The notes under the pieces are model-generated. The model did not search any database, was not told where the DNA came from, and saw nothing but the letters and a program-made list of their open reading frames with translations. A stretch of 64,000 bases of DNA from an uncultured Phycisphaerales bacterium (GTDB lineage: Bacteria > Planctomycetota > Phycisphaerae > Tepidisphaerales > Tepidisphaeraceae), in contig CAWJPJ010000008.1 of the NCBI GenBank assembly GCA_963844715.1, positions 800,001 through 864,000 on the forward strand, written 5' to 3'. The translations under genes and the position numbers were made by a program. Of the stretch, positions 11,735 to 64,000 are shown in pieces (the first letter of the stretch is position 1; every line of letters begins with the position of its first letter).

Positions 11735-11858
11735 ATGCTGCAAAAAACGCAGACGAAAGTCATCGACAACCTTCGCAGATTGCGGAAGCGCGTGCGATCC
11801 TTGATCGGTGCGGGCGCAATTCCTTTGTTCATTCCGTGCGTTTATGATCCCCGGCAGG

Positions 11859-14947: not shown

Positions 14948-14948
14948 C

Positions 14949-22291: not shown

Positions 22292-22307
22292 TGGCGGAAA
22301 CTCATCT

Positions 22308-37459: not shown

Positions 37460-37572
37460 GCGACCCCTCCCCGAACCCGCCCCGGTGCAGAAAGAGCCGG
37501 GGCGGGCTGGGGAGCGGTTGTCAACGTGACGCCGCATTCACAAGTGGCCATTTCAACGAAAGGAGATTCATC

Positions 37573-38040: not shown

Positions 38041-38052
38041 CCGAGGTGTCCC

Positions 38053-40053: not shown

Positions 40054-40980
40054 CCTGCCATCGGTAAGGCGTAGTTGCGGAAGAGAGAGCTTGCCTCCTG
40101 GGCCAGTTCGCTGGTCAGTTGCAGATAAACCTGCGTCTCGCGAACGCTGCAATGGCCCAGATACGTCGCCAAGCGTGGTAGTAATTGCTGAACGTTCTTG
40201 CCCGCGGTACCAGCTAATCAGCCGGTTCACAGCGAAGGTATGCCGCAGATCATGCAACCTCGGCTGAAAGAAAAAGCTGGTTGGTCGGCGGATTCCAATC
40301 TGTTCGCGCAGGAGCTTGTAGCTGTGTTGCGCGGTCTGCTTGGCAATCCGCCGTCCCGTGCGATCGGTTAGAAACGGCTTGTCATTGCCGGCGTCGCCGG
40401 CGCGATGCTTGCCTTGGTAGGCGATCAGCAGACTGCGCAGGTCAGCGCCGATCGGCACCAGCCGGCTTTTGTAGAACTTGGTCTGGCGGATGGTAAGGAT
40501 GCTCGCCCGCAGGTCCACGTCTTCCACATTCAGCGCCAACGCTTCGCTGATGCGAAGCCCGCTGCCATATAGCAGCAACAGAATCGTTCTCATGGTGGCT
40601 GGGCTGAGTAACCAACAGTTGCGATACCGCTGACTGGTCGCTTCCAAGAGCGACTTCATCTCCGCGACCGAATAAATGTAGGGAATGAACGACCACTGCC
40701 GACGAGGCTTGTCCCGCGGCAACGGAGACGCCGATGCGTACTTGCGGCTGATCGCAAACCGATAAAAACCGGCCAGGGCATGATACTTGGAGAGCCAATA
40801 GTTGGTGACGGGGCCATCTCCATCGAGATAGCGGCGCACTGTTTGAGGAGTCACGCGCCGCAGCTCGACATCGCCAACGGCTCGGGCAAAGGCGTGGAGC
40901 AGGCCTTTTTCTCTGCAAAAACCAATGCCCAGTGATTGGCGGTACTCCACGTAACTGTTAACACAGGCCGAGACCTTCAT
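40050..40980 (-). CDS. ritB: RIT tyrosine recombinase B (frameshift near 40200)
   Basis: SGLRISEAL, TKFYKSRLVP, RLHDLRHTFA. Confidence 0.85.
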
Positions 40981-40990
40981 TCCTGCTCCT

Positions 40991-44702: not shown

Positions 44703-44901
44703 CGGTTTAGTTCAATTCATTGGGTTGAACTATTTTTTTGTAATTAAGAAGGGAAGGCAAGGTAAAAGCGAGCCAGTGGGTGTTTTTGTAAGTCTCAGGC
44801 CCACGAAGGGTTGGCGCAACCTATGCCAGTTTGATGACAGTGGGTTTCCAATGGGTCGTTTTTCAGAGCTTTGGATGCTCGAAAGAAGCTCGGAGGTACG
44901 T

Positions 44902-46886
44902 ATGCCGCGGAGATTCAGAAGGCAGCCGGATGGTGTTGATTCGGATCAGATCGGCCGAATGGGCGCACGACGACCGCGGGAGCGGAGCGTCAACAGCGAG
45001 CTCGCCCGGCGCCTGCGCGGTTTCAAAGGGCGCACGCGAAAGTACCTGCCGGGCGGTTCCGCCGGCCGGGGTATGCGGCAGCGGGTTGTCGTCAAGGCGC
45101 ACGTCAGCCGACACAAGCCGGGCAAGGCGCGGGGGAGTTTGGCGCGCCATGTGTCATACCTGGGACGGGAAAGCGCCAGCGCCGACGGCAAGCATGGCGT
45201 GTTCTATGACGCCATGCGCGAGGGGGTGAACGCCAGGCAGGAGGCCGTCCAATGGGCGCAGGACCGGCACCATTTCCGGCTGATCGTATCCCCGGAGCGC
45301 GGCGGCGACATCCCCGACATGACGGCTTACGTGCGCGAAGTCATGCGCCGGGTGGAGCGGGATCTGGACACCAAGCTCACGTGGATCGCCGTCAATCACC
45401 ACAATACGGACAACCCCCATGCGCACATTCTGCTGCGCGGGAAGCAGGCGGACGGGGCCGATCTGGTCATTCCCCGACAATATATATCGTATGGAATCCG
45501 GGACCGGGCATCGGAGGTGGCGACCGAACTGCTGGGAGAACGGACGCCCCAGGAAGTCCAGTTGGCCAAATCCAAGGAGGTCGAAGCGGAGCGATTTACC
45601 TCACTGGACCGGATGATCGAGCGAGCGTTGGACAACGGCAAGATCGACGTTTCACCGTCGAAGCATATCGGCTTTGGCGCGGATGATCGGCGGTTGGTCG
45701 TGGGCCGCTTGCAGTTCCTTGAACAGATGGATTTGGCGCACAAGGGCGCGGAACGACCTGGCATGTTGAGGGGGATTTCAAGCAGGCTCTGCGCGAACTC
45801 GGGAACCGCAACGACATCATTCACCAGCTCTACAGCCAGTTGGGCAACGAATCGGGACGAGTTGTGCCGATGGCTGGCGGCAATCGAACCCTCACCGGCG
45901 GTCGCCGGCGTGGTCATTGCCAAGGGCAGCATCGATGAGCTGGGGGAAGATCGGTTTGTCGTAGTTCGTGACGGGAGCGGGCAGGCGCACTACGGCCGGG
46001 TCAGAGACAGCGCGCCTTACCGGGACCTGGAGATCGGGTCGGTCGCCGAACTGGGCGCGGTGCGCAGCGTCGGCGGGAGGTGATCGAGCAGGTCGTGGCG
46101 GTCGCCAACGCCAATGACGGAATCTATTCGCCGCAGTTGCACGAAGCTTATTTGCGCGGGACCGGACCAGACTCGACCGATCGGGAGATTGCATCAAGCG
46201 TGCGCTCGGCAGCATGGCGATTGGGCTTTGTTGCCGGCTTCGAGGGGTCCGGGGTGCGCGCATTGGGGAACGGTGAGTACGCCATCGATGCCAATTCCTT
46301 TGCGCAATTCAGTCAGCGGGGAAGCCAGCGAACCGACGTTCGGGTGATCGCCGAGCACTCGCTGGCAAAGCAAGTTGAGGCACACGCGGCGACGTGGCTG
46401 GACCGTCAGACGTTCGGACGGCAACGGGATGCCCGCACCGACAACAATCCGATCGTTCAGGAAGCGGCGCAGCACCGGCAGGAATGGCTCGTGCTAAACG
46501 GGTATGCCGAGCGATCCGCCGGCGACACCGGAACGGTTCAACTGCTTCCCGGCGCATGGGAGCAACTTGCGGCCGAGGAACGTGCCGAAGTGGCCGAACG
46601 GCTGGCCGGCAAGTACGGCCTGCCAGTCAACGAACTGCCCCAGGGCGGCACGGTCAGTGGCGAGTACCACGGCACGGAACACCTCCACTCGGGCAAGGTG
46701 GCTGTGGTCGTGGCGGAGGAGAGCGTGTTTGTCTCACCCGTCAGCCGCGATCCCGACGTTGGCATAGGCAATGAAGTCAGTCTGCAGCGCACATCGGCGA
46801 GGGATGCGACGGTTGAACTGGCGGCGGGACAAACGCTTGACTTGGATGCCGGACTGTCTCGGGACGGACCGGGAGGTGACGAATGA
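44902..46886 (+). CDS. VirD2-like (MOBP, RlxS/DUF3363-type) relaxase, frameshifted
   Basis: QRVVVKAH, RHVSYLGRE (Tyr), HHFRLIVSPE, AVNHHNTDNPHAHILLRG HUH motif, ERFTSLDR, ATWLDR. Confidence 0.88.
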
Positions 46887-48739
46887 ACGCGCGACGACTC
46901 TTCATTGCATACCTGATCGTATTGGTGGCCGGATTGGTGACAGCCACCCAATGGGTTGCATTCCGGTTGAATTACCATCCTGCCCTGGGAGGCGTGCGCA
47001 TCGGCGGGCACATGGTCTACGCGCCCTGGGCAATGTTCATCTGGGCCCGCGACTTCGGTGACAACATCCCCAAAACGCTCACCGAGGGGTATGCGTTCAT
47101 CGGCGGCACTTTCATTCTGGCCACGCTCATGCTGGTTGGAGCGCGCCAATTGCGCCGCCACATCCCCGTCCGGGAGATCGGCAAGGATCGTTGGGCCAGC
47201 AAACGCGACATGAAGCGCGCTGGTTTACTGACCGGCCAGGGAACCGTTCTTGGACATGCCTTTGGTCAATATCTCACCTACGACGGACCCGAACACCAGC
47301 TTGTTTCCGGTGCAAGCCGGTCCGGCAAAGGCGTGGGACACGTTATTCCCACGCTGCTGAACTGGAACGGCAGCATCTTGGCCTACGACATCAAGAACGA
47401 ACTGTGGGACGCGACCGCGGGGATGCGCGCAAAGCGAGGTTACTGCCTGTTCTTCAATCCGACCCGGCCGGACAGCGCCCGGTTCAACCCGCTCTTTGAG
47501 ATTCGCAAGGGTGCCAACGAAGTGCGCGATGCGCAGAATATCGTCGAGATGTTGGTGAACCCAACCGGCGCAAAGCACACGATGGACATTTGGGACCAGC
47601 AGGCGAGCCAATTTCTGGTGGCGCTGATCCTGCATGTGCTCTACACCGAGCCGGATCAATATAAGAATCTGGCGACGGTGCGGGCGCGATTGCTCGACTT
47701 CAAGCGGACCGCGTTGGCGATGATTCGCACGCCACACCGCTTCAACCCGCAGACCGGTGCGCCGGAGGTTCACCCGGAAGTGGCGCTGGTGGCCAACGAG
47801 CTGCGCCGCCAGCCGGCGAAGTTCCAGTCCAGCGTGTGCGGAACGGCGGCGGCATATCTCACACTTTGGGCGGACGACATCATTGCCCGCAATACAGCTA
47901 CCAGCGATTTTCGGCTGAGTGATCTGGTGTGCGCCGACCGGCCCATGACGCTTTACATCCAGCCGCCACCCTCGGATGCACCCCGTTTGCGCCCTTTGGT
48001 CCGGCTGATGATCAATCAGACATGCCGGGCACTGATGGAATATCTCGACCGCGATAGCGCCGGCCGACCGAAGAACCATCGCCTGTTGTTGTCGCTAGAT
48101 GAGTTCCCGACGCTTGGACGATTGGACTTTTTCACGATGAACCTGCGCCAGATGGCCGGATACGGAATCAAGGCGCACCTGATCGTCCAGTCCTTCAACG
48201 ACATCATCGAGCAATATGGCACGAACAACACGATCCTGGACAACTGCCACATCCTGAGCACCTTTGCCGCTGCCGATACCGTCACCTGCCAGCGTATCAG
48301 CCAAATGGTCGGCACCGTGACCGAGTACCGGGAGAGTTATTCGCAGGCCGCTCGGAACCTTGGGGCGAGAACGATCAGCCACAGCGAACAGGTTCGGCCG
48401 CTTCTGTCTCCCGGAGACATTCGGGAATTGCCGGTGGATGACCAACTCATGTTTGTAACCGGCTTCAAGCCAATGCGCGTGAAGAAGGTGCGATATTTCA
48501 ACGATCCGATCTTTATGAAACGGATTCTGCCAGCGCCGGATCAATCAGCGTATCTGAACGTACCGGCCAAACCCAAAATCGACTGGCTGCACGAGCGGCC
48601 CAAGGGGCCGGAATTGGCGTTGCCCGCACCGAGTCATAACGGCCTATCGGCGAGCGGGAGTCCCGCCGCGGATTCCGACGAGGATACGGAGCAAGACGCG
48701 ACAGACCAGAACCTTCACTCTGAAAGTGAATACACGTGA
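46883..48739 (+). CDS. traG: Type IV coupling protein TraG/VirD4
   Basis: N-terminal TMs, GASRSGKGVGHVIPTLL, RFNPLFEIR, LDEFPTLGRL, AGYGIK. Confidence 0.93.
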   Translation: MNARRLFIAYLIVLVAGLVTATQWVAFRLNYHPALGGVRIGGHMVYAPWAMFIWARDFGDNIPKTLTEGYAFIGGTFILATLMLVGARQLRRHIPVREIGKDRWASKRDMKRAGLLTGQGTVLGHAFGQYLTYDGPEHQLVSGASRSGKGVGHVIPTLLNWNGSILAYDIKNELWDATAGMRAKRGYCLFFNPTRPDSARFNPLFEIRKGANEVRDAQNIVEMLVNPTGAKHTMDIWDQQASQFLVALILHVLYTEPDQYKNLATVRARLLDFKRTALAMIRTPHRFNPQTGAPEVHPEVALVANELRRQPAKFQSSVCGTAAAYLTLWADDIIARNTATSDFRLSDLVCADRPMTLYIQPPPSDAPRLRPLVRLMINQTCRALMEYLDRDSAGRPKNHRLLLSLDEFPTLGRLDFFTMNLRQMAGYGIKAHLIVQSFNDIIEQYGTNNTILDNCHILSTFAAADTVTCQRISQMVGTVTEYRESYSQAARNLGARTISHSEQVRPLLSPGDIRELPVDDQLMFVTGFKPMRVKKVRYFNDPIFMKRILPAPDQSAYLNVPAKPKIDWLHERPKGPELALPAPSHNGLSASGSPAADSDEDTEQDATDQNLHSESEYT

Positions 48740-49329
48740 GCGAACGCAAGACCCAACTTTCGGTCTTTTTAGAGCAACAAGTGCTGCTGGCCGCCAGGCA
48801 GCGCGCAAAAGAAATGAAGCTCTCGATGTCGGCGGTTGTGGCCGAAGCGGCCAAGGAATCGCTGTTGTCCGCTTATCGGAGCGAGCGCGAACAGGAAATC
48901 CTCAAGGCGGTCGAGCGAAACTTTCATGCGCTACGCCGGCTGGACCAGCGGTTGGCGCTGGAGATTCAGATCCTCAAGGAAATGGTCGGGCTGGGGATGC
49001 GCTCGTTTTTCAACCATACCACGCCGATTCCAGACGCGACCAAGGCTGCCGCGATCCTCAGCGGGAAGCAGCGATTTCATGGCTATATCGACATGCTGGC
49101 CAAGAATCTGCGCAAGGGTGAATCGATCCTCAGCGACCTTCCGTTGCCCGAACTTGATCCACCGAAGGAATCAACGCAGCCGCCGCAAAATGTCGAAGAG
49201 GTGGCCCCGACCAATCACGCTCTTAGCGCAGCTAAAGCCAAGGACCGTGCAACAAAACAAACTGTGCCGACCAGCGCGCCGAATGGCGCTCGTGAGTGGG
49301 CGTTGTTCGAGCCAAGCGGAGAGAAGTAA
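48736..49329 (+). CDS. Ribbon-helix-helix/CopG-like protein between traG and trbB
   Basis: N-terminal KTQLSVFLE...MSAVVAEAA RHH-like pattern; position as in Tn4371-like ICEs. Confidence 0.55.
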   Translation: MSERKTQLSVFLEQQVLLAARQRAKEMKLSMSAVVAEAAKESLLSAYRSEREQEILKAVERNFHALRRLDQRLALEIQILKEMVGLGMRSFFNHTTPIPDATKAAAILSGKQRFHGYIDMLAKNLRKGESILSDLPLPELDPPKESTQPPQNVEEVAPTNHALSAAKAKDRATKQTVPTSAPNGAREWALFEPSGEK

Positions 49330-49351
49330 TTCAAAACAAAGGAAATCAATC

Positions 49352-50311
49352 ATGGCGGCTAACGCAAATTCCGTTCATCACCGGCAGCAGGAAAGCCTCT
49401 ATCACGCCTTGGGACCGTTGATCGCCGAGGCGTTGGGGCGTCCCGACGTGGTCGAGATCATGGCCAACCCGGATGGAAGTCTATGGGTGGACCGCGCCGG
49501 CGTTGGACGTGAGAGAGTCGGCCGAATTGAGCAGGCGGCGGCCGAAACCACGATCCGGCTACTGGCGAGCCATATGGGCGAGACGGTTACGCCGGATCGT
49601 CCTGCCGTCGCCGGTGTTTTGCCGCGCAGTGGGGAACGATTCCAAGGACTATTACCGCCTCTGGCCGAACGGCCCGTATTCACCATTCGCAAGCGCGCTT
49701 CGATTGTTTTTACACTCGATGATTACGTTGCAAAGGGAATCCTGCCGGCCGCTAGTGCCGATGTGATTCGCAGCGCCGTCGTCGAGCGGAAAAACATCCT
49801 CGTAGCCGGTGGCACCGGATCGGGTAAGACCACGCTGGTCAATGCGATCCTGGCAGAGCCACCGTTCAAGAGCGATCGCATCGTCCTCATCGAAGACACA
49901 AAGGAGCTTCAATGCCCCGCAGACGATAAGGTTGAACTCCTGACAAAGAATACTGAGCCGCGGGTAACGATGACGGATTTGCTCCGCATGACACTCCGCC
50001 TTCGTCCAGATCGAATCATCATCGGCGAGGTCCGTGGGCCGGAGGCACTGGCCATGCTTAAAGCATGGAACACCGGCCATCCCGGCGGCGTGGCCACTAT
50101 TCACGCGAATTCGGCATCCGATGCACTTCGACGTATCGAAGACCTGGTCGGAGAAGCCTCGCAGATCATTCCGACGCGTTCTATCGCATCCGCGGTGAAC
50201 CTTCTAGTTTTCATCGAGCGCACGAGTGCTTTCCCCGGCCGATTGGTTCGCAGTATTGTCGAAGTCCGAGGTTTCGAGAATGGAGAATACTTACTGCAAG
50301 AAGGCACTTAA
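49352..50311 (+). CDS. trbB: P-type conjugative transfer ATPase TrbB (VirB11)
   Basis: [51 protein letters not shown]. Confidence 0.93.
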
Positions 50312-50319
50312 CCCCGGAA

Positions 50320-50607
50320 TTACCGACACTCTGGAAGGCTGAGAAGATTGTCGGGCTGCACGCCATCATTTTCCGTCTTGAGATATTTGTGGCCGTATGC
50401 GCTGGTGGACACAATCACATTGACGGTGCGGCCCCCACGATGTACGAAGAAAGTCCATTTGCCTTGCTCGATCCCGGCTATGGCATCCCCTTGCGTGAGC
50501 TTCCAGGAAGTTCCGTCCCCATTGCGTCCCCCGATGTGGGTAATCCGTTCATGAGGATTCATTCGGTCACTCTTGTTGATGCACAAGATTTCATGTTGAG
50601 TTGCCAT
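50320..50607 (-). CDS. DUF3892 domain protein
   Basis: RITHIGG...AIAGIEQG...FFV...V.V...G.KYLKT..D....NLLSLPEC pattern. Confidence 0.8.
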   Translation of the reverse strand: MATQHEILCINKSDRMNPHERITHIGGRNGDGTSWKLTQGDAIAGIEQGKWTFFVHRGGRTVNVIVSTSAYGHKYLKTENDGVQPDNLLSLPECR

Positions 50608-50659
50608 GTTGCGTCGTCCTTTCCGGCCGATAAGCCTGTTGGTGTATGCTCTTTCTCAA

Positions 50660-50675
50660 AGCAACATCGATGCCA
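50660..50675 (-). promoter_or_regulatory. Sigma54 (-24/-12) promoter for the DUF3892 gene
   Basis: Minus strand TGGCAT-cgatg-TTGCT, about 50 bp upstream of the start. Confidence 0.8.
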
Positions 50676-50826
50676 GGGCCGCCCCGCATTTTGTTGCCAA
50701 GACGTAGATGCATGTAAATACAACTGTTGCGACGCCTTTGTTCTGCCGATCAGGAGCGAAGGCTTGCAACAGCCTTGCTCTCTCGTACAATTCCGTTTGT
50801 GAAGTCACAAGGGAATTGGTGGTAAC

Positions 50827-52415
50827 ATGGCATCAAGGCGGATTCTCTTTTCTTGGATCGGCCACACGGACTTACGCGCCATGGCGTCCACGCTTCCTGA
50901 GACAGAGCAAGAAGAAGTTCTGGCCAAAATTAAAGCGCCGGTTCTAAAGCGAGGTGAGGCTGGTCCACTCAAGTGCCTTCTCAATCACGAGAAGTTTGAG
51001 GAGGTTCATCTGCTAAGCAATTACCCTTCCGCACTCGGCCAGCGATACGTCAAATGGCTCGGCGACTCGGCAGTGCTGCATCAAGTGAAGCTAAACAACC
51101 CGACTGACTATCCAGAAGTATTCAACGTCGCCGACGCCCAACTTGCAGCGGTGGTTAACATCCCGCGTCCTCACGCAATCGATCTATGCCTGCATCTCAG
51201 CCCGGGCACGCCCACGATGACGGCAATATGGCTACTCCTCGGAAAGAGTAAATATCAGCCCGCGACTTTCTATCAGACCCACGAAAATAAAGCGTGGGTA
51301 ACGACGGTTCCGTTTGATCTCATCATGGAGTTTGTTCCGCAGGTTATTCGAGATGCTGACGCACGGCTCCAGGCTCTGGCTAGCCAAAGTCCGCGCGAGT
51401 TGAAAGGCTTCGAGGGCATTGTGGGTGAATCGAGGAGCCTGCGTGTGGCGGCCGGACTGGCACGCCGCGCCGCAACACGTGATGTGTCGGTGCTGCTTCT
51501 TGGAGAAAGCGGAACAGGTAAAGAGAAGTTCGCCCAAGCCATGCACGACGCCAGTCCACGACGGGAAGAGCCGTTCGTTTCCATCAATTGTGCGGCGATT
51601 TCTCGAGAACTGTTGGAATCCGAGTTATTTGGTCACAAGAAGGCGCTTTTACGGGTGCGGTCGAAGATCGTATTGGCGCGTTCAAAGCCGCTGATCGAGG
51701 AACACTATTTTCGGATGAAATCGGTGAGTGCGACCCGGCAATGCAAGCAAAGCTGCTCAGGGTTCTCCAGCCGCCAGACCACGATCCTTGCCGCCGCACT
51801 TTCTTTCGAGTCGGCGAGTCCAAACCAACGACCAGCGATGTTCGCATCATTTCGGCGACGAACCGCGATTTGACAAATGCCGTTACCCGCAACGAGTTCC
51901 GCGATGACCTCTACTATCGGATTGCGGCGATAACGATCAAGTTGCCCCCGCTCCGAGAACGCCGAGAAGATATTCCTCTGCTTGTTGACCATCTCCTCAA
52001 GCAGATTAACGACAACTTTAAGGACAAAGAACCTGGGTATGTCCACAAAAAGATTTCTGGTTCCGCCATGACGTTTGTGCGGAAGCACCCTTGGCCGGGC
52101 AACGTCAGACAGCTTTATAACACGCTTCTCCAGGCGGCCGTGATGACCGATGCGGAGACCATTGACCGGCAGGATATCGCGGACGCCGTCGCTGAGATTC
52201 CGGGAAAAACGACGTCTGACCTGCTTGGACAGCCGCTCGGCGAAGGCTTTGTCCTGACTGACTTTCTGGAAGAAATCCAGCGTCATTACCTGATCCGAGG
52301 AATGAAGGAGGCAGCAGGCGTGAAGTCGAAGGCCGCCGAGCTTCTCGGGTACAAGAACTACCAGACGTTGGCGGCTCAACTGGATCGGTTGAATGTCGAA
52401 ATACCCGCGACGTGA
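50827..52415 (+). CDS. Sigma54-dependent enhancer-binding protein with RtcR/CARF-like N-terminal domain (frameshift near 51640)
   Basis: [11 protein letters not shown] and HLSPGTP N-domain motifs; [47 protein letters not shown]-terminal Fis-HTH. Confidence 0.87.
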
Positions 52416-52430
52416 CACCGAAAAATTTCG

Positions 52431-52446
52431 TGGCACACGCTTCGCT
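52431..52446 (+). promoter_or_regulatory. Sigma54 (-24/-12) promoter for the downstream defence operon
   Basis: TGGCAC-acgct-TCGCT with GG-N10-GC spacing in the 57-bp gap after the activator. Confidence 0.72.
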
Positions 52447-52472
52447 TTTAGAGCCGTAACACGAAAGGAATT

Positions 52473-54147
52473 GTGATTATGACCGCCGTAATGATTGAAA
52501 ACGCGATCGGTTATCAACTTCAAGTCCCCAAGGAGATTTCGCTCTCGCTTATCGTTCGAGACCCTGAAACCGTTTACGATCTGTGGCGCCGCAATGATGG
52601 TGAGCCGCGCGATAACTTCGCGCTTTCGGCGCTGCGGTTAGGCGTGATGGCTCTTCGTCAGGCTGCTGGCGCCGTGGATGGCGAAACAGTGCGCCGCGAG
52701 GGCGAAAGGCTTGTGTCGTCTGTCCGCGAATTGCTGACGGAGCGCTCGAACCAAATGATGGAGCATGTATCGACGACGCTAAAAGCATATTTCGATCCCT
52801 CCGACGGTCAATTGCCACTACGGCTTGAGCGCTTGCTGAAACGAGACGGAGAACTGGAAATTATTTTGGCCCGTCACGTGGGCGATGACGGCTCAACTCT
52901 CGCACAGACTCTAGCCCGGCATGTTGGCGAATCCAGTCCTCTATTGAAACTGCTGTCGCCCGATCAAGCGGACGGCGTTATCGGGGCGCTGACTGAAACG
53001 ATTCAGAAGGCAATGGATGATCAGCGTAGGCACGTTCTGCAGCAGTTTTCGCTCGACAAAGAGGATTCGGCGCTTTCTCGCCTGATTAAGCAGGTCTCCG
53101 ACGCCAATGGAAAGTTTCGCGGTGAGCTGTCTGAGGACATCAATCGACTCTGTGGTGAGTTCTCCCTGGACAACGAAGAAGGTGCGCTCACGCGGCTCGT
53201 GCGACAGGTTGAACGGGCACAGAGAAGCATCGTCGAGCAGTTCTCAAACGACAATGAGGATTCAGCCCTACGGCGAATGACCAAACTCCTTGAAACGACG
53301 AACAAGTCGATTCAGAACAGTCTGACGCTGGACGACGATAAATCGCCCTTGTCCCGACTGCGTCGGGAATTGATGAATGTGCTTGAGGAGGAGAAAAAGG
53401 CGAATAACTCTTTTCAAACGGAAGTGAGAGCTGTACTCGATGCGATGAAGGCTCGCCGCGAAGAGGCAGATCGTTCGACTCGGCATGGTGGGGAATTCCA
53501 AGATGCCGTTGGGGCACTTCTCCAAACCGATTCACAACGACTTGGGGATGTTTTTGAGGATGTGGGCGATAGCGCCGGCAGAATTTCTCGCTGTAAGGTC
53601 GGTGACCATGTGATCACGTTGAGCGCGGAGAGTGCGGCACCGGGGGCGAGAATTGTTAGTGAGTCAAAGGCCGACAAGTCATACGACCTTCGCCGGGCCC
53701 TTGGCGAAATCCAGCAGGCCAGAGAGAACCGCGATGCGCAAGTCGGGATATTCGTGTTTTCCTCAGCCAACGCTCCTGCGGATCTTGAGCCACTCAAGCG
53801 GTACGGCAACGACGTCGTCGTGGTGTGGAATCAGGATGATCCTTCCACTGATATTTTGCTGAAATGCGCCGTCTCGGTTGCTCGCGCTGGCGGTTCGTGA
53901 GGTTCGTGCGTCGGCAGAGGCGGAAGCGAACTTTGAAGAACTCGAAGCGGCAATTGCGAAGGTAGGTCGTGACGCAGCCGCTTTGACGGAGGTAACAACC
54001 TGGGCAAATACAGTCCAGAGCAGTGGCAAAAAGATTGCGGATCGTGTCGAAAAAGTTCGCGAGGATTTGGAAAAACAGGTTGATCAGCTTCAAGAACATG
54101 TAGCACGGCTCAAGGCCAGCGTATCGGCGGGAACTCATACTGCCTGA
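52473..54147 (+). CDS. Long coiled-coil protein with C-terminal PD-(D/E)xK-like nuclease motif (RmuC/DUF2130-like), frameshift near 53885
   Basis: Internal FSLD.E.SAL.RL repeats; RHGGEFQD...KVGDHVI...IVSESK motif. Confidence 0.6.
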
Positions 54148-54161
54148 TTCTGCCGCTTATT

Positions 54162-57100
54162 ATGAAGTCACTCAACTTCGAATTTCTTTCCTCAAGCTGG
54201 CCGGACTTAGCCGGCCTTGGCAGCTTTGCCGAGCAATACGCAATTCCAGACCCCTCTCACGCCGCAGTAAAGCTCCGCGCCTTCGCCGAACAGATCGTCG
54301 CCTTCATTTTTCACACGCACAAATTACCCCCAATTCCGCGAGCTAATCTAAATGACCTTCTGGAAACTCATTCGTTCCAACAAACCGTTCCGCGTGTCAT
54401 CCTCACGAAGCTGCACGAACTTCGAATAACTGGCAACCATGCCGCTCACGGCGCCGAAGTCAAAAGTCGACAGGTGCTGTATTTGCTCAAGGAAGCATAT
54501 GATTTGGGATGTTGGCTCAGCATGACTTATGCGGGCACAACAAAAGCCCAGCTTCCGTCCTTTACTGATCCGCTAACGACGCCTGGCGCCGACTCCAAGG
54601 AGCAACTCAAACGCGAGAAGAAAGCCGTGCTTGAGAAGCTAGCCGCCGCCGAAGCGCAGATGCAGCAGCTTTTATCCGAATTGGAAGCGACTCGCGGCAG
54701 GGCCACGGCGGCTGAAGCCAGCGCGGCGGAGCTGCAAGCTTCTGTGGAGGCAGGGCACAAGGCCGTTACGCGCTCTTGATTTCGACGAGGCCACTACTCG
54801 CCGTCGCCTGATCGACACGATGTTGCTGACTGCGGGCTGGGATGTCGATCCTGATGGTGGCTCGACTGCACAAGTCGGTCAGGAAATTGCGGTCGATGGT
54901 CAACCCACGGACACGGGAAAGGGTTGCGTTGATTATGTCCTTTGGGAAGATGAAACCGGCAAGCCGTTGGCGGTGATCGAGGCCAAGAAAACCGCCAAAA
55001 ACGCCGAAGAAGGCCGAACGCAAGCGAAGCTGTACGCCGACGCCCTTGAGAAGAAGCACGGCCAGCGTCCGGTCATTTTCTACACTAACGGGTTTGAAAC
55101 GACGCTCTGGAACGATGCCGACGGTGAACCACCGCGCCGGGTATATGGCATCTATGCCAAAGACAGCCTGCGCTATGTGTTCTTCAAGCGTTCTTCCCGG
55201 CAGCCCGCCACCGCTGTGCACGCGGATGCCAACATCACGGACCGAACGTATCAGATCGAAGCGGTAATGAGGGTTATCGAACGCTTTGCCGCCAAGCATC
55301 GCAAGGGGCTTATCGTACAGGCCACTGGCACCGGAAAAACTCGCGTCGCTATCTCATTGGCCGCATCTTTGATTCGGGCCAATTGGGCAAAGCGAGTGCT
55401 ATTCCTATGCGACCGGCGCGAGCTTCGGAAGCAAGCGTCCAACGCGTTCAAAGACTTTTTGCCGAGCGAGCCGCGGACGGTCGTTACGACGGATACAGCT
55501 CAAGACCGCGAATGCCGGATTTACCTGGCAACCTACCCGGCCATGTCGAAAGTCTTTGAGACCTTCGATGTTGGATTCTTTGACCTCATCATCGCCGACG
55601 AATCTCATCGGAGCATTTACAACCGTTACCGAGATATCTTTCTTTACTTCGATGCGTTGGAGGTTGGCCTGACCGCGACCCCGGTCGATTACATCGCCCG
55701 CAACACCTTTACGCTGTTCAATTGCGAGAACCAGGACCCAACATCGAATTTCACCTTCAACGAGGCGATCAATCACGTTCCCCCTTATCTCGTTCCATTC
55801 AAAGTCCAACGAGTCACAACGGCCTTCCAGCGTGACGGTATTCACTACTCCCAAATGAACGACGATCAGCGGAAGCAATTGGAGGAGGACGAGGTCGAAC
55901 CGGATCGAATCGAATTTAATCCGCACCAGGTCGACAGTCAGGTCTTTAACAAGGACACCAACCGGCACATCCTTCGCAACCTCATGGAACGAGGAATCAA
56001 GGTCAAAGACGGCCAGCAGATCGGCAAGTCCATCATCTTCGCCCGCAATCACAATCATGCGGTATTGCTTCAAAACCTCTTTGACGAAATGTATCCGCAG
56101 TACGGAGGCAAGTTTTGCCGCGTCATAGACAACTATGACCCTCGCGCCGAGGAGTTGATCGACGACTTCAAAGGATTGGGAACCAATCCCGACCTGACCA
56201 TTGCGATTTCCGTGGACATGCTCGATACGGGCATTGACGTACCGGAAGTCGTGAACCTTGTTTTCGCCAAGCCCGTCTATTCCTACGTTAAATTCTGGCA
56301 GATGATCGGTCGTGGCACTCGCCTGTGCAAAGACCTGTTGGGTGCCAGCAAGGATAAGACTCACTTCCTCGTCTTCGATCACTGGAATAATTTCAGTTAC
56401 TTCGACGAAAGCTATGAGCCTGCCGAGCCTTCTAACGGCAAGCCATTGCTTCATCGCTTGTTTGACGCCCGGCTGATTTTGGCCGAAACGGCTCTATCCA
56501 AGCCTGACATTTGCGTTTTCGAGTTGGCTGCAGCGTTGATTACCAAAGACATTGCCGATCTTCCCGAAAAGACCGTATCCGTGCGCGAGAAATGGCGGCA
56601 GGTGATTGTGGTAAAGAACCCCGAAGTGATCCGGCAATTTGAGCCGGCCACACTGGTCGCACTTCGGCAAGACATTGCCCCCCTGATGCAATGGCGCGAT
56701 ATCGCCGGCGATGAATCAGCGTATATCTTTGATCTACTGATTTGCCGACTTCAAACCGAGCTATTGCGGCAATCAGCGCGATTCGATGACCTTAAAGCCC
56801 AACTTCTGGCGATTCTCGACGATCTAGTAATGCACCTTTCCCAGGTCAAGGCGAAGGCTGACACGATCGCTTCGCTCCGCACGCAAGCATTTTGGGATCA
56901 GGTAACAGTCGCCTCACTCGAAAATGTGCGAACCGAACTTCGCGGGATTGTTCGCCACCGATCCCAAATCTCCACTCCTCGTGTTCCGCCAAAAGTCATT
57001 GACGTGAAGGAAGACGAATCGCTGATCGAGCGCAGGGACTACAAGCCCAAACTCGAAGGTCTGGACTTGGCCGCGTATCGGAAGCGCGTGGAGCAGGCGC

Positions 57101-57561
57101 TATCAAGCCTCTTTACAAACAATCCGACGCTACAGCGAATCAAGGCTGGTCAGCCGGTTTCTGAGACGGATTTGAAAACACTCGTTTCCTTGGTCCTCAC
57201 TCAGTATCCGGACCTCGACTTGACCGACCTCACCGAATACTTTCCGGAAACCGCCGGCCATCTCGACATGGCCATTCGCACCATCATCGGCTTGGACGCC
57301 CAGACCGTCGATCAGGTGTTTCAAGGTTTCGTCCGCAAGCATCGTCTGAACTCAATGCAAATTCGATTCCTGACCCTGCTTCAGAATCACATTGCTCGCT
57401 ACGGGTCGATAGAATTGGAACGGCTTTACGATGCTCCGTTTACTTCGGTCCATACCGAGGGCCTTGACGGCGTGTTCCCCGAGAACGCCCAGGTGGACGA
57501 ATTGATGTCTCTAATCAAAAAGTTCAGCCCTTCGGGGCCAAAGGATAGCGCCATAGCATGA
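54162..57561 (+). CDS. hsdR: Type I restriction enzyme HsdR with DUF4145-like N-terminus (frameshift near 54770)
   Basis: VDYVL..IEAKK nuclease, [36 protein letters not shown]; EcoEI-like C-terminus. Confidence 0.92.
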
Positions 57562-59093
57562 TTACCGGCACGCTAAAGAACCGTATGGATCAGCTTTGGA
57601 CGGAATTTTGGACGGGTGGCATCACGAACCCACTCACCGTCATCGAGCAAATCTCCTATCTCATGTTCATTCGTATGATGGACATGCGAGAGACTCGACG
57701 CGAGAAAGCCGCTGCGCGCACAGGCAAACCATTTCAGGGCATCTATACCGGCCCAGACGACCCCCGTCGCTGGCACAATCTCGTTCACATGCCCGGCGAC
57801 CAGCTTCTCGAAACAGTTGACCAGAAGGTCTTCAAACAAATCCGCGAATTGGCTGTGAAAGACACGATCTTCGGCCAATACCTGGCCGACGCTCAGCTCA
57901 TGGTTCGCAAGCCTAGCTTGCTCGTCAAAGCCGTCGAAATGATCGAGGCCTTTCCCCTAGCCACGAGCGACACTAAGGGCGACCTGTACGAATATCTTCT
58001 CTCCAAGCTCACAACGGCTGGCATCAACGGCCAGTTCCGCACGCCGCGACACATCATCCGCATGATGGTGGATCTTGTCGAACCGCAGCCCACATGGCGC
58101 ATCGGCGACCCCGCTTGCGGAACCGCCGGCTTCCTTGTCGCTGCCATGGATTATCTCCTTGAGCACAATACATCCCCAAAGGGCATTCTTACGGAGAAGA
58201 TCAACGGCGACACGGTCAAAGTGTTCTCCGGCGATCTGCTGGAGCCTTACCGAAAGCACATCCAGAACGACATGTTCTTCGGCTTCGATTTCGACGTGAC
58301 CATGCTCCGCATCGCCGCAATGAACATGATGCTCCACGGCGTGGAGAATCCCATCATTCGTTACCAGGATACGCTGTCCAACGGATTCCCTGACAACAAA
58401 CAGCACGGCCAGTGCGCCGAGAATTTCTTTGATGCGATTCTCGCCAACCCCCCATTCAAAGGCAGCCTCGATTCCACCGATGTGCACCCTTCCCTCACTG
58501 GCAAGGTCAAAACCCGAAAGACGGAATTACTGTTTTTGGTTCTCATGCTCCGCATGCTCAAGCTGGGCGGCCGCTGCTCGGTAATTGTGCCCGATGGCGT
58601 CCTGTTTGGCTCAAGCTCCGCCCACATCGCATTGCGAAAACTACTGGTCGAAGAAAACCAGTTGCAAGCCGTCATCAAACTTCCCGCTGGCGTGTTCAGG
58701 CCATACGCAGGTGTTTCGACAGCCGTGCTGATGTTCACAAAAGGCGGCCAGACGAACGATGTTTTCTTTTACGACGTGCAAGCCGACGGTTTCTCCCTCG
58801 ACGACAAGCGTGACTCCATAAAGGAAAGCGACCTTCCCGACGTTCGTCTGCAATGGAAGAAGTGGGCCGATGGCAAGGGAAAAAAGCATTTTGCCGACCG
58901 CACCGGTAAGGCGTTCTTCGTGACCGCCAATGACATCCGAGACAATGGATACGATCTTTCGATCAACCGCCACAAGGAAGTCGTGCACGAGGAATTGAAG
59001 CACGATCCACCAAAGGTAATTCTCAAACGCCTTCGCAAATTGGAAGAGGAAATTGCTAAAGACCTGAGCGAACTGGAGGGAATGCTGAAGTGA
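57558..59093 (+). CDS. hsdM: Type I RM methyltransferase HsdM
   Basis: [33 protein letters not shown]. Confidence 0.95.
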
Positions 59094-60301
59094 TAGCGAC
59101 TCCCTCAATAACTTGGGAGGATCGCGCTTTAGGCGAAATCGCCGAGATCGACCGCGATGGCGTTGCACAGAGTCAATCGACGATGGCACGTTTTACGTCG
59201 GCCTAGAGCACATAACTGGCGAAGGTCAAATCGTTGGAGCTCGGCAGGTTGCCACTGGGGACTTGGCGAGCACTAAATTCCGCTTTGGCGACAGTCACAT
59301 CCTTTACGGCAAACTGCGGCCGTATCTATGTAAGATTGCTCGCCCAGGCTTTGCAGGCGTGTGTAGCACCGATATTCTACCGATTCTCCCCGGCCCGAAG
59401 GTTGATCGCGGATATCTATTTCACTTTCTTCGACATCCCCGGATCGTAGCTTGGGCAACCGCGCGATGCGAGGGCGCGAATCTTCCAAGGCTCAGTCCAA
59501 AGAAGCTGGACACGCTGTCTGTTCCATTGCCCCATCCAGGTGATCCAGAGCGGAGTCTAGCCGAGCAGGAGCGAATCGCTGCCGTTTTGGATAGGGCCGA
59601 TGCCATCTGCCGCAAGCGACAAGAGGCGCATCGAAGTGGTTAGAGGTCTAAGCAACAGCTTATTCCAAGACCTGTTCGTCAACTATCTAAGACTACCAAT
59701 TTCCGAAATGCCTCGGCTTGGCAATCCAGAGCTTTCAGATATAGCGTCTGGTGTCACCAAGGGGCGACGCTTCAACGGTCAACCAACAGTCATCGTGCCA
59801 TATATTCGCGTTGCGAATGTCCAGGACGGCTATCTTGACCTCAATGAGATCAAGACAATTGAGGCGCTTCCTTCCGATGTAGAGGCGCTCCGTTTGCAAC
59901 CCGGAGACGTGCTAATGACCGAAGGGGGCGACTTTGACAAGCTGGGCCGCGGCGCACTTTGGGAAGCCGATATTCTGGACTGCATCCACCAGAATCACGT
60001 CTTTCGAGTTCGATGCAACCGAAAGAATCTTCTACCCGTGTACCTGGCTCATTACATCCGCACCGAACTCGCCAAAGGATACTTTCTCCGATGTGCCAAG
60101 AAGACCTCCAACCTAGCCAGCATGAACATGACTCAATTGAAGGCCACTCCGGTTGCTTGTCCGCCAATGGAGTTGCAGAAGCGATTCACTACCGAAGTGA
60201 AAAACATCGACGACCTCAAGCGCCAACAAGGTACCGCTGTCCGTGATTCGGAAGCGCTTTTCAATTCCTTAGTTAATCGAGCCTTTGCAGGGGGACTATA
60301 G
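59090..60301 (+). CDS. hsdS: Type I RM specificity subunit HsdS (frameshifts)
   Basis: Two TRDs ([19 protein letters not shown]) with conserved [10 protein letters not shown] and [15 protein letters not shown] repeats. Confidence 0.88.
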
Positions 60302-60302
60302 C

Positions 60303-61124
60303 TTGGCCGTCCAAACGCAAAATCGAATTGCGGCGTTTTCCGCCCAGCATTTGGAGGCAATCAGCCGCGTGCTGGCAGACACGGAGACCGGGCTGACGGG
60401 TTCGGAGATTGGCCATCTCCTTTCAGATTGCCGAATCAATGATCCTGACCCAGCCATGACGAAATGGAAGCGGCTTTACAATGCATTTGTCGGCTTCCAG
60501 AACAAGAACCATATTGGGAATCACGTAGTCGTGTTTATTGGACGGGCAATGAATCCAGCCAGCTATACTTCCCGCCCGGATGTTTTCCGCCTTCGCCGCG
60601 ACAACCTAAACGCCGTACTCGCATTCTGTGGAATGCATCTTCGAGAAGACGGCAAGGTGCAGCGAACTGATCGGGCCTCCACAATTAACCAGGCATTGGA
60701 GCGGGCCGATCGCCTTCGGGCTGCCTTGACGCTCAGGAACGTACATGCCGACGTCCTCAAATTTTGCACGGCAGAATTACTCGATGAGAATTTCTTCCAC
60801 GCCGTCTTCGAGGCGATGAAAAGCATCACGGCCAAGCTGCGACAAACGAGTGGCCTCACCAATGACGGCGCCGATCTGGTACACGATGCCTTTGGTGACC
60901 GCTATGGCACGCCACTCCTGGCGATCAACTCTTACGACAGCGAAACTCTTGTTATGGAACAGCGTGGATTTGTCAGCCTTTTGAAGGGGCTGTATGGGAC
61001 GATTCGGAACCCGCTAGCCCATGATGCAAGAATCGAATGGGAAATGGATGAGCAAGATGCTCTGGATATTCTGACCATGATATCGCTCGTACACAGGAAG
61101 CTGGATAAAGCCCGTCGGCTATAA
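60303..61124 (+). CDS. TIGR02391 family protein with AbiJ-like N-terminal domain
   Basis: GLTGSEI..TKWKRLYNAF N-domain; FHAVFEAMK, GLTNDGADL, IRNPLAH (RxxxxH HEPN-like). Confidence 0.75.
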   Translation: MAVQTQNRIAAFSAQHLEAISRVLADTETGLTGSEIGHLLSDCRINDPDPAMTKWKRLYNAFVGFQNKNHIGNHVVVFIGRAMNPASYTSRPDVFRLRRDNLNAVLAFCGMHLREDGKVQRTDRASTINQALERADRLRAALTLRNVHADVLKFCTAELLDENFFHAVFEAMKSITAKLRQTSGLTNDGADLVHDAFGDRYGTPLLAINSYDSETLVMEQRGFVSLLKGLYGTIRNPLAHDARIEWEMDEQDALDILTMISLVHRKLDKARRL

Positions 61125-61142
61125 GTATTCGACCTCTAATGC

Positions 61143-62820
61143 GTGAGATTGAACATGATCACTGCAATCGAAATCGAGAACTTCAAAGGCTTTTCCCACC
61201 GGCAACGAATCGAGTTGCGCCCATTGACGTTGCTTTACGGTGCAAACTCTGCCGGCAAGAGCAGCGTCTTTGACGCGATTCACTACGTCCGCGAGGTGAT
61301 CGAACGTAGCAACCTTGATGCCCAACAAGTCATTGGCGGCGGGGACATGGTCGATTTAGGCGGCTTTGACACGATGGTGCACAATCACACGCCGGGCACA
61401 GTAATAAAGCTGCGGATCGACATTGGATTTCTTCCTCCAGGATTCAGCGCGAGCCTCCTCGCAAGCGAAGACGATCCGCAGGTTGTCAGTTGGATCGCAA
61501 ATCGCGCTCGTGATGGTTGGATCGAATTTCACGTCGTTCGCAATGGTCCACCAATCGTGTCGCACTACGAAATGGGTCTCAACGGAAGCCGGCTTCTCGC
61601 ATCTGATACTTCTGCCGATGGTTCTCAAGCCACGCTGACTATGGACGCGGATCATTCCATTTTCCGATTGCCCGATTCCGCTTCCAACGACGTGCCGCCT
61701 TTTATCCAGGAGCTTATTAAGAGATTTGAGGGAAACGAATCATCGATGCCCTCGAACCTGATTCGCCTCTTCTTGACGGCTGAAGACGACATGCCAGCGC
61801 CATTACCTCCCTTGCTTGAAGGTCAGGTATGGACCGTCGCTGGTGATGCATTGCCGCGAACGAACTCGGCTGAGCTAATCCGGTTAAAGCAAGCCATGGC
61901 TGAAATGCCTGAAAACAACTCAGGGCGCGTCGTACTGGGCGCTCGTTTTGAAATTTCTTCAGGAGCCACTTTCGCTGCTCCGACAGGCTCTAAACCGCGT
62001 TGGTTATCTCGGTCCGGTCCGAAAGAAGCCTGGGCGTGGATTCTCGATTGAAAAAATGGTTCCGAACACGGCGCGCGAAGCATGTGGGCTCTCCACCTGG
62101 GATTGGTTGGGGCAAGCGACTGCTGAGGAACTCGCTGAATTCAATCGCTTCATGCACTCAGAAGACCCGCGTTCACTCAAGACCGGCTATGTCATCCAAT
62201 TGAGACAATATAAGGAGCTCGACTTGGCCAGCCGATTGATGGCCGATCTTGCCGCCGGACGGGTGTTTGAAGACGTTGATCTTCGAGACGCGCTTAATTC
62301 CCTTCCCACACGGACGCAGGTGTTACTTAGGGATGAGACATCGGGACAGGGTATGCTCCTGCACCCCGAGGACGTGGGTGAAGGCGTATCCCAACTCGTC
62401 CCCGTGATTGGGATCACCCTTGGCCGACAGCACGACTTACTTATGACCGAGCAGCCCGAACTCCACGTGCACCAGACCATCCAAGCCAATCTCGGCGATG
62501 TTTTCCTTTATCGCGTCGAGCGCAGCATGGATGAATTTAACCGACTGGACGACCTTGCTCCGCTACGATGGCCCGTTCGTCAGCTCGTAGAGACTCACAG
62601 CGAACCGCTTCTTCTTCGAGTAATGCGCCGCATTCGCCAGCAAACGAAAGACAAGAAGGAATCGGCGATCAAACCCGAGGACGTTCGCATTTATTTTTTT
62701 TCAAGGAAGGATGACTCTATTCGGGTGATTCCAATCGATGTGACGCCACAGGGCGATCTCACCCAACCTTGGCCCGATGAGCAGTTCGAGGTCGACTTTG
62801 CTGAGAGGTTCGCCCGATGA
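61143..62820 (+). CDS. ABC-type (AAA_15/AAA_21) ATPase with DUF3696-like C-terminus (frameshift near 61945)
   Basis: IENFKGF, YGANSAGKSS, DVGEGVSQ, EQPELHVH, VETHSE, C-terminal GDLTQPWP. Confidence 0.82.
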
Positions 62821-63787
62821 TTTGCGAGTTTGCTCTGACACCCGAAATCTTTTCGTCTGATGCCCATGCTGATCGTGAGCTGTGGCTGTCGAGCGTTCGC
62901 GATTTCGTTGCGGCCCTGTTTCCGAAGACGAATCAACTACCAGCATGCATATCTAATTTGTACGATGGCGGTTGGGAAAGCGAAGCCGGAAAACTCGCTG
63001 TTGCAAGTGCTCCCGAAATCCGCGGTGATGTGGCCAAACTACTGAGCCGCCTCCAAGACCTGCTCGTAAAGCGCGATCCTGTCGGAGACTGGCCTGGCGA
63101 CGAAGACGCATGGGCCATGGAGGCGTCTTTGTGTTCTGCTCGACAGCTACAAATCAGCCAAATCTGGGCGAGCAACGAGTGTTGTGGACGGTTGGGCGGC
63201 CATAATTTTGCGACTTTACATGATGTTTCATATCCGGCACGTTGGAACGATTTCCGCCCCACCCGCAGAATCCCCTTGACCGTTGGTGACCAACTGGCCG
63301 CCTTGCGCATGCTGACATTTCATTCCAGTTGGTTGGCTTACATCGACCCCTACATCCATGGTTCGACTGCCGATGACGAGCTAGAGCTGGCGTTAGCGTT
63401 TTGACTCAAATGCGGGCTAGGCCTCGCACCACACCTGTGCTTCTCGACATTCACACTGACGACGCGATAAATCCAACAAACGTTCTTGCCAATATCAACC
63501 GGCGACTTCCGGCCGCCGATCCTTCCTTCCAGATTCGCGCGTTCTTTTGGCCGAGAAAGATGCTGGAGCGGTATGTGCTGGCGGGCGAAGTTAATGCTTC
63601 GGCGGCTAACTTGCGGCAGCAACGAGTTCGTTGGGGCGTGGGCATGGGGCATGTGGCCCGAGACAATGCCAATGCTCGAAACGTAACGCCAGTTACTTGG
63701 TCTCTCCTGCCTAGATCGGAAGTTCCAGGGCTGTTTGCCGAATACTACTCCACAACAGCCCCCACGTTGATTCAGCGAATTCGCTGA
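62817..63787 (+). CDS. Hypothetical protein coupled to the ATPase (frameshift near 63400)
   Basis: ATGA overlap with ATPase; IDPYI and LERYVL motifs reminiscent of degenerate PLD/MIT-C-like fold. Confidence 0.55.
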
Positions 63788-64000
63788 ATCACGCGACCAA
63801 CGCGCCTCGACCAGATCTGCTTACTTTCCTGGCGAACGTACCGCGCCGAAAATGGCAGGATTGCCAAGACTTTACATGACGACAGGCGTTCCTCTCGCCG
63901 TCCTCGCTGCGTTTGTAACCATTCATAGTTCCACAGGTTTCCAGACGATGTCCCGACGTGGCAATGACCGACGGACACGAAAGTCTAAGGTCGCCTGCCT

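Follow-up and report, generated by a model that had tools for sequence, protein, structure and literature searches.

Restriction-modification (R-M) systems are usually treated as constitutive, and a promoter of the sigma-54 class is silent without an activator. Whether the former could be placed under the control of the latter is the question raised by a cassette at positions 50320 to 63787 of a 64-kb stretch of DNA from an uncultured Phycisphaerales bacterium (contig CAWJPJ010000008.1; the whole stretch is hereafter called the window). The cassette contains a gene for a predicted sigma-54 activator with a CARF-like NH2-terminal domain and, behind it, a run of defence genes that includes a Type I R-M set. 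Because a promoter of this class is silent until it is activated, a CARF-gated activator ahead of hsdR would mean that restriction can be held back and then released by a signal. Such gating is relevant to the means by which mobile elements keep autoimmunity and cost in check, and the idea of this control has been in print since 2014.

The cassette is probably a self-contained, horizontally mobile defence unit in which a CARF-AAA+-HTH activator is combined with two sigma-54 promoters that it is predicted to activate, one divergent (P1) and one ahead of the operon (P2). The analysis established the identities of the domains, the modelled CARF fold, the promoters together with their conservation, and the order of the genes, and it located rpoN in the genome as an open frame of 511 amino acids. 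An earlier reading of the same DNA, made from the sequence alone (the sequence-only reading), had listed the elements of this region, and all of them were found in place with the use of Pfam, PADLOC, and NCBIfam. The genes behind P2 do form the tightly coupled run that it described, spanning 11.3 kb, with neighbouring genes either overlapping or lying no more than 20 nt apart.

The activator and its NH2-terminal domain

The activator gene lies at 50827-52415 on the plus strand and, as assembled, consists of two open reading frames (ORFs), 50827-51873 and 51588-52415. Its product matches the Pfam families Sigma54_activat, AAA_lid_14, and HTH_8. The PADLOC model PDLC01995 (RtcR_PspF2--CARF_AAA_HTH) is covered almost from end to end, with residues 5-272 corresponding to model positions 2-243 (expect value [E] of 2.5e-68) and the second ORF to positions 242-480 of 481 (E 1.4e-88); the name RtcR_PspF2 is used here only as the label of that model. 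Similarity to RtcR was also apparent with the PADLOC RtcR model (E 3.3e-15) and, below threshold, with the Pfam RtcR family for the NH2-terminal domain (17.1 bits, cut-off 23.1). The two halves of the activator scored 95.1 and 213.8 bits against the NCBIfam RtcR equivalog NF038308, below its cut-off of 650 bits. On the basis of these matches, we assign the protein to the RtcR_PspF2 family of CARF-AAA+-HTH activators and not to RtcR itself.

A search of PDB sequences with the NH2-terminal domain returned nothing meaningful, and a fold search was needed. We obtained an AlphaFold model of residues 1-190 from 60 aligned sequences, with a predicted local distance difference test (pLDDT) score of 89.9 and a predicted template modelling (pTM) score of 0.82. 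Comparison of this model with the PDB by Foldseek yielded 53 matches at E ≤ 0.001, the top ones being all CARF proteins with a probability of 1.00. The leading matches were Csm6 (6tug; E 7.1e-6, TM-score 0.63), the ring nuclease 7pq3, SSO1393, Card1, and Can2, and further CARF proteins that were matched included Cami1 and Cad1. The model thus indicates that the NH2-terminal domain is CARF-like, as the sequence-only reading had proposed in calling it RtcR-like.

In enhancer-binding proteins such as RtcR, the AAA+ domain is held inactive by the sensor domain, and the action of a ligand or a partner ends this inhibition. The structural matches bear on what such a ligand might be here. The nearest structures are those of CARF proteins that bind cyclic oligoadenylates (Csm6, Can2, Card1, and ring nucleases), and in two related loci an AGS_C gene is located near the activator (L110) or a Cap15-type receptor closes the operon (L102). 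The domain might then sense a cyclic oligonucleotide produced by a Type III CRISPR or cyclic-oligonucleotide-based antiphage signalling (CBASS) system, and not RNA ends or a protein partner. We consider this quite unlikely, however. A search of the genome, whose assembly is estimated to be 85% complete, gave no Cas10/Csm1 above the cut-off and neither Cmr2 nor SMODS, and a signal made by CRISPR or CBASS is therefore disfavoured. A cassette that moves on conjugative elements and plasmids should not need a host-specific synthase, and sequence similarity, including the Pfam match below cut-off and the PADLOC match mentioned above, favours RtcR. RtcR-type CARF domains also mostly do not possess the basic residue after strand 4, according to Makarova et al. 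2014 (PMC4012209).

The activator belongs to a large family, of which several thousand members were seen. The 120 best database matches are mostly 525-533 amino acids long and are 61-94% identical to it over the first 272 residues, and the named organisms among these 120 belong to Planctomycetota. The NH2-terminal domain was found in 15 of 400 sampled other genomes of the phylum and in none of those listed as 'same class', and this distribution is therefore consistent with horizontal spread of the gene.

Two sigma-54 boxes and their counterparts in related loci

Two -24/-12 boxes flank the activator gene, at exactly the positions given in the sequence-only reading. P1, TGGCATCGATGTTGCT, is located at 50675-50660 on the minus strand, 53 nt upstream of the ATG of a gene for a 95-amino acid DUF3892 protein (50320-50607, minus strand; Pfam PF13031, E 6e-22), for which a comparison with PDB sequences yielded nothing meaningful. 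P2, TGGCACACGCTTCGCT, at 52431-52446 on the plus strand, starts 16 nt past the activator stop codon, and 27-33 nt separate its end from the first operon gene. Each box matches 10 of the 11 positions of the sigma-54 consensus, and each has the GG-N10-GC spacing with TGGCAC/TTGCW-like elements on the right strand upstream of a gene. The pattern TGGCAYNNNNNTYGCW has only two matches on both strands of the 64 kb, namely P1 and P2. This count on its own is weak evidence, with 0.51 matches expected by chance and two or more obtained in 9 of 100 shuffled sequences. The argument for promoters is carried instead by the position and orientation of the boxes at the activator gene and by their conservation in relatives.

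For the latter, we compared 19 related loci (numbered here with the prefix L), of which 2 came from genome contigs, 2 from metagenomes, and 15 from a sample of the phylum. The scan of genome contigs with an alignment of the full-length activator was dominated by generic sigma-54 activators through their WPGNVRQL pattern, and only L002 and L003 of the 80 loci kept from it also matched the NH2-terminal domain; the scan of metagenome contigs, performed with that domain, found the other two. A box was defined as GG-N10-GC with at least 9 of the 11 consensus positions. Among the 17 loci that contain the 3' end of the activator gene, 11 have a counterpart of P2 starting between -13 and +32 relative to the activator stop codon, and 2 more have one that matches at 8 of 11 positions. 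Boxes of this quality numbered 95 in a background of 687,010 strand-positions, which corresponds to an expectation of 0.017 per locus (120 nt). A divergent box of the P1 type was present within 350 nt upstream of the activator gene in 8 of the 19 loci, compared with 0.048 expected per locus. Both boxes are thus conserved above background.

The order of genes is conserved as well, with hsdR or its DUF4145 portion lying directly behind the activator and box in 13 of the 17 loci. Loci of this type usually continue with hsdM and hsdS and often with an AAA_15/21 ATPase gene, homologues of the ATPase gene of our cassette following hsdS in L109, L107, L106, L112, and L114. In the other 4 of the 17, the activator gene is followed by a BREX set (L101), a gene for a large methylase-AAA_16 protein (L111), genes for TPR proteins (L104), or nothing recognisable (L003). 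The targets of the divergent box are DUF3892 genes in L098 and L099, genes for DUF2130 proteins in L101 and L109, and genes for unknown proteins elsewhere. The DUF3892 homologue of L098 and L099 is 81% identical to the protein encoded here and occupies the same divergent position, and the aligned counterpart of P1 in these two loci, TGGCACAGTCATTGCT, matches all 11 consensus positions. A box at the activator stop codon was also found outside the phylum sample, in plasmid pAcX50d of Azotobacter chroococcum, where Type I R-M genes come next, and in a plasmid of Rhodoferax antarcticus (L125), where VWA, PP2C, kinase, and AAA genes follow. The two observations on which the sequence-only reading had staked itself, a CARF-like fold and conserved boxes, were therefore both made.

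Three of the related loci contain other defence genes beside the activator gene. In L101 (11878-19899), a member of the activator family heads a BREX set consisting of BrxA, BrxB, BrxC, and a PglX-like protein. The operon of L102 ends (17810-19369) with AbiTii and a Cap15-type cyclic-dinucleotide receptor. The AGS_C gene of L110 (12181-13749) is of the SMODS-associated kind.

The region before the activator gene contains additional candidate elements. A consensus scan detected a sigma-70-like promoter, TTGCAA-16-TACAAT, at 50764-50791 on the plus strand. Such a scan found 5 sites compared with 7.5 expected, so that the match is weak alone; L098, L002, and L003 have kept the TACAAT element ahead of their activator genes. 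An inverted repeat at 50788-50818 has the core TTGT-N6-ACAA at 50797-50810, a motif with only two matches in the window. Similar TTGT-N6/7-ACAA palindromes precede the activator gene in the same three loci, and the centre of the one here lies about 130 nt upstream of P1. The core is a candidate for an activator binding site or an auto-operator. The whole repeat could equally well represent a hairpin in the mRNA leader (predicted at -15.1 kcal/mol, z score of -2.5), and an Rfam scan of 50000-64000 at E ≤ 1 gave no match. A search for repeats common to the regions upstream of P1 and P2 gave only short, unconvincing pairs. Immediately upstream of their start codons (50809-50818 and 52464-52473), the activator gene and the first operon gene have AAGGGAATTG / AAAGGAATTG in common, a likeness that could reflect a common ribosome-binding context or chance.

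From this layout, we infer how the cassette may be switched on. RtcR and PspF suggest by analogy that the CARF domain would hold the AAA+ ring off and that a small nucleic acid-derived ligand or a protein partner would lift this block. The released hexamer would then remodel the closed complex of sigma-54 holoenzyme at both boxes, and transcription of the restriction and accessory genes would rise. A search for terminator-like sites on the plus strand between the activator gene and the operon found none, and read-through from the sigma-70-type promoter of the activator gene may therefore provide a low basal level of methylase.

Several observations weigh against this account. P2 has TCGC instead of TTGC at the -12 element, and a search for an activator-binding repeat upstream of P2 found none. 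Four of the 17 related loci have no box at the activator stop codon, L111 among them having a 9/11 box about 55 nt before it, and 11 of the 19 have no divergent box. The related loci are also kin, with 15 of the 19 coming from one phylum sample, and the counts, which overstate independence, demonstrate conservation and not independent events. Induction of hsdR together with hsdM from silence would moreover risk self-restriction, and the model accordingly needs the basal expression of methylase.

Some of these points could be read to mean that the DUF3892 gene, on the divergent side, is the sole target of the activator, with P2 unused and the R-M operon expressed constitutively by read-through. 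The candidate palindrome is located at a classical enhancer distance from P1 with nothing similar upstream of P2, P2 deviates from the consensus as described above, and R-M systems normally need constant expression of their methylase. This possibility nevertheless appears very remote to us. Of the two boxes, P2 shows the stronger conservation (11/17 compared with 8/19), and it has stayed at the stop codon in loci whose activators are only about 40% identical and in the two plasmids of Pseudomonadota; it is the divergent gene that varies among loci, being DUF3892, DUF2130, or unknown. A PspA-like feedback of DUF3892 on the activator was considered and dropped, given that the divergent gene differs by locus and that DUF3892 is also cargo of unrelated regulators.

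Control of both promoters by the activator, which we prefer, can be extended tentatively to a portable device for 'restriction on demand', a proposal that we consider possible but doubtful. Read-through from the activator's own promoter would keep the methylase at a protective basal level while the CARF domain senses a generic product of infection or RNA damage. The sensed RNA ends might be made by the HEPN-like TIGR02391 protein of the operon, which would give positive feedback. Bound to the single palindromic enhancer, the activator would fire P1, about 130 nt away, as well as P2 at a distance of 1.6 kb, so that the levels of HsdR, of the coiled-coil nuclease, and of the ATPase module would rise only on need. 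If true, such a device would lower the cost and autoimmunity of restriction carried on a conjugative element.

The operon genes and the state of their reading frames

The first gene of the operon (52473-54147, plus strand; split into 52473-53900 and 53878-54147) encodes a protein of an unnamed family of about 555 amino acids. No match was obtained with Pfam, PADLOC, or NCBIfam, with Pfam even at E ≤ 5, and its 1125 homologues, typically of about 550 amino acids, are nearly all labelled hypothetical. The protein carries four repeats of the type FSLDxxxSALSRL, and its COOH-terminal coiled coil is located here in an ORF of 89 amino acids. A model of residues 320-475 (pLDDT 90.1) matches the folds of Bax1, McrC, MspJI, HindIII, and Hjc, and D378, E397, and K399, which form a D...ExK motif, are invariant across 40 homologues. 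The sequence-only reading had named this protein a coiled-coil nuclease, and the model and the invariant residues agree in predicting a PD-(D/E)xK nuclease, though one with no family match. Alignment by hhalign with the two DUF2130 proteins encoded at the divergent position of L101 and L109 superimposed the D...ExK core weakly (probability 22.9%, E 0.0009), and a precomputed match to PF09903 (DUF2130) exists for 1 of 120 listed homologues. The nuclease gene is absent from all 19 related loci; from this comparison, it appears to have been inserted between promoter and hsdR in the present lineage and in the contig that encodes the homologues P0004 (activator) and P0124 (nuclease).

The R-M set follows on the same strand, as do the remaining genes. 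The hsdR gene (54162-57561; split into 54162-54779 and 54820-57561) encodes a protein with an NH2-terminal DUF4145 domain and matches to Pfam DUF4145, ResIII, and EcoEI_R_C as well as to PADLOC REase_I (E 1.2e-263). Its stop codon is overlapped by 4 nt by the start of hsdM (57558-59093), the 511-amino acid product of which matches Pfam N6_Mtase (E 3.2e-59) and HsdM_N and PADLOC MTase_I (E 7e-175). The hsdS gene (59113-60301; split into 59113-59643 and 59600-60301) has Methylase_S content and matches PADLOC Specificity_I with E values of 1.6e-46 and 2.9e-55. These domain matches together identify HsdR, HsdM, and HsdS as a Type I R-M system. The next gene (60285-61124) encodes a HEPN-like protein of the TIGR02391/Hypoth_Ymh family (Pfam PF09509, E 5.6e-38; also TIGR02391), which matches PADLOC PD-Lambda-3_B (E 2e-107) and Aga_HEPN (E 9.2e-10). 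At E ≤ 0.001, the run contains no match to a model for the A component of PD-Lambda-3, so that the pair is incomplete. An ABC-type ATPase with AAA_15/AAA_21 and DUF3696 domains (61143-62820; split into 61143-62051 and 61948-62820) precedes a partner protein of about 322 amino acids (62817-63787; split into 62817-63404 and 63401-63787) that belongs to no known family, neither of its ORFs having a Pfam match at E ≤ 5. A protein-cluster look-up for the partner homologue P0247 gave only unnamed clusters, with a weak MIT_C lead on 13% of one of them.

Six of these genes, including that for the activator, are split between frames. In frame 0, the activator reads ...ELFGHKK and then ALLRV... up to the stop at 51873, and GAFTGA continues in the -1 frame to 52415. 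The break is thus a 1-nt deletion at about 51636-51640, one base before GAFTGA. The intact homologue P0004, 94% identical to the activator, reads HKKGAFTGA unbroken, and one base is therefore missing here; it falls within a G run. The sequence-only reading had described GAFTGA as intact, which is correct for the letters of the motif but not for the activator ORF as assembled, which is frameshifted and leaves the motif out of frame. Programmed frameshifting in the activator was considered and rejected, as rpoB and rpoC show breaks of the same kind.

The five other split genes are those for the nuclease, DUF4145-HsdR, HsdS, the ATPase, and the partner. The nuclease is in pieces of 475 and 89 amino acids, the latter aligning to the COOH-terminus of P0125. 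Both HsdR pieces match the same PADLOC REase_I model, PDLC03047, at positions 5-172 and 231-1102, and DUF4145 and HsdR are encoded by a single ORF in L102, L113, and other related loci. The two HsdS ORFs cover positions 20-167 and 165-387, respectively, of the Specificity_I model PDLC03069. The partner pieces of 195 and 128 amino acids align end to end on the 322-amino acid P0247 with identities of 57% and 58%.

The assembly, which comprises 8 contigs, has rpoB in four frame pieces and rpoC in three (G000:C1:67135-75271, outside the window). Because these essential genes cannot be broken in this way, the assembly must be rich in insertion and deletion errors, and the six split genes are most likely such errors and not signs of decay of the locus. 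Across the assembly, the rate of these errors is about one per 1-2 kb, which renders 'pseudogene' calls in this genome unsafe.

The frames also supply points on the other side, the first being that the activator as assembled is broken. It has substitutions of G to R and of L to S at two near-invariant columns next to the Walker B motif, and the break in the nuclease gene recurs identically in the 95%-identical P0124 from another contig, both sequences ending with ...SVARAGGS. Given this common break, not every frameshift need be an artefact, and the nuclease split (53878-53900) may be either genuine or the product of a GC repeat that causes systematic errors. One could go further and regard the cassette as a decayed, non-functional remnant in which all six frameshifts, from that of the activator gene to that of the partner gene, are real mutations; the six split genes lie within 13.5 kb, and the upstream relaxase/DUF3363 gene is split too. 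We find such decay unlikely. The broken rpoB and rpoC of the same assembly mean that its error rate explains the breaks, the frames are otherwise open and conserved, and the base missing from the activator gene lies in a G run.

Known systems and the mobile setting

The sequence-only reading had put the locus forward as an undescribed system, a claim that does not hold. Section 7 of Makarova et al. 2014 (PMC4012209) already describes a family with an RtcR-like CARF domain, an NtrC-like AAA+ domain, and an HTH domain that is unlinked to Rtc and often found beside R-M genes, and it predicts regulation by sigma-54 for this R-M-associated family. The PADLOC model PDLC01995 represents such proteins, and section 11 of Bell et al. 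2024 (PMC11090510) describes co-directional defence superoperons that begin with an RtcR homologue and can include Type I R-M genes and, in Pseudomonas, the coiled-coil, RmuC-like nuclease ShdA. With regard to the first of these sources, the architecture, the association with R-M genes, and the sigma-54 prediction are the same and there is no difference in kind. What the present locus adds are explicit promoters and their conservation, a DUF3892 target, a nuclease in first place, a candidate palindrome, and carriage by a conjugative element.

The RtcR-headed superoperons, known as CoCoNuTs, are similar to the cassette, according to the same section of Bell et al. 2024 and the legend of its Fig. 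8, in that an RtcR homologue lies 5' of a co-directional defence train in which Type I R-M genes and a coiled-coil nuclease may be present. They differ in that the run here contains no McrB/McrC-type CnuB/CnuC and no CnuH helicase domains, and its nuclease, having no PADLOC match at all, did not match a ShdA model. The paper also proposes activation through an upstream activating sequence and puts forward a feedback idea for CoCoNuTs, the application of which to the present cassette is speculation.

Other regulators provide partial parallels. The rtcBA system of Escherichia coli and Salmonella has in common with the cassette a CARF-like NH2-terminal domain, a GAFTGA-containing AAA+ domain, and a COOH-terminal HTH domain in an activator encoded beside its sigma-54 promoter, whereas rtcA and rtcB do not adjoin the activator gene here, its neighbours being DUF3892 and defence genes. 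PspF has no sensor domain and is controlled by PspA, and its enhancer overlaps the promoter of its own gene. The arrangement of an activator gene divergent from a sigma-54 promoter, with a candidate site in between that overlaps the promoter or leader of the activator gene and may confer autoregulation, is similar to that of pspF and pspA; the differences here are the CARF domain and a second promoter downstream. BrxR/CapW and CapH/CapP are likewise portable sensor-regulators ahead of varied defence cargo, but they are repressors released by a signal, whereas the protein here would be an ATP-driven activator of an otherwise silent class of promoter. In a 2022 preprint (bioRxiv 10.1101/2022.04.27.489752, sections 11-13), DUF3892 genes are named among the cargo of CapH/CapP and an earlier link of DUF3892 to defence is cited.

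The architecture was thus read correctly, and the locus, which has a widespread layout and was probably damaged in assembly, is a member of a computationally predicted kind and not a new principle. The local additions are incremental: DUF3892 as a predicted regulon member, an unnamed nuclease family, a candidate enhancer palindrome, conjugative carriage, and named plasmids. In a full-text search of the literature, we found no experimental test of the control of an R-M system by sigma-54 or a CARF domain, in keeping with the claim of the sequence-only reading that the circuit had no experimental description. For such a test, the locus and its relatives supply exact promoter coordinates, a candidate binding site, and two new predicted regulon members, DUF3892 and the family of about 555 amino acids, and the same layout occurs on named plasmids, such as pAcX50d of A. 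chroococcum, which are tractable and reside in model bacteria of sigma-54 research.

By its gene neighbourhood, the cassette appears to be cargo of an integrative conjugative element. Conjugation genes upstream (44725-50311) include the split relaxase/DUF3363 gene and genes for a TraG/VirD4 coupling protein and a VirB11/TrbB-type ATPase. The end of the operon at 63787 abuts convergent conjugation genes, and downstream on the opposite strand (L115, 985-13156) are genes for TrbI, VirB8, TrbL, pieces of VirB4/TrbE, and VirB3. Beyond them lie an AbiEi/AbiEii pair and then housekeeping genes.

Elsewhere in the window, the stretch 31196-42391 contains an IS110 transposase gene, three consecutive tyrosine recombinase genes (32881-36163), a DUF932 gene, and, on the other strand at 39040-42391, two further tyrosine recombinase genes. 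It looks like a mobile element of the recombinase-trio type inside or beside the conjugative element. A DnaE2-type error-prone polymerase with PHP, DNA_pol3_alpha, finger, and OB domains is encoded in four ORFs at 20165-25535, and two unannotated ORFs upstream of it could be its usual partner genes. Finally, genes for an integrase, a DUF4365 protein, a ResIII helicase, an N6_N4 methylase, and a UvrD-like helicase, together with several large ORFs that match no family, occupy 4598-19832, which is probably a second defence or mobile stretch.

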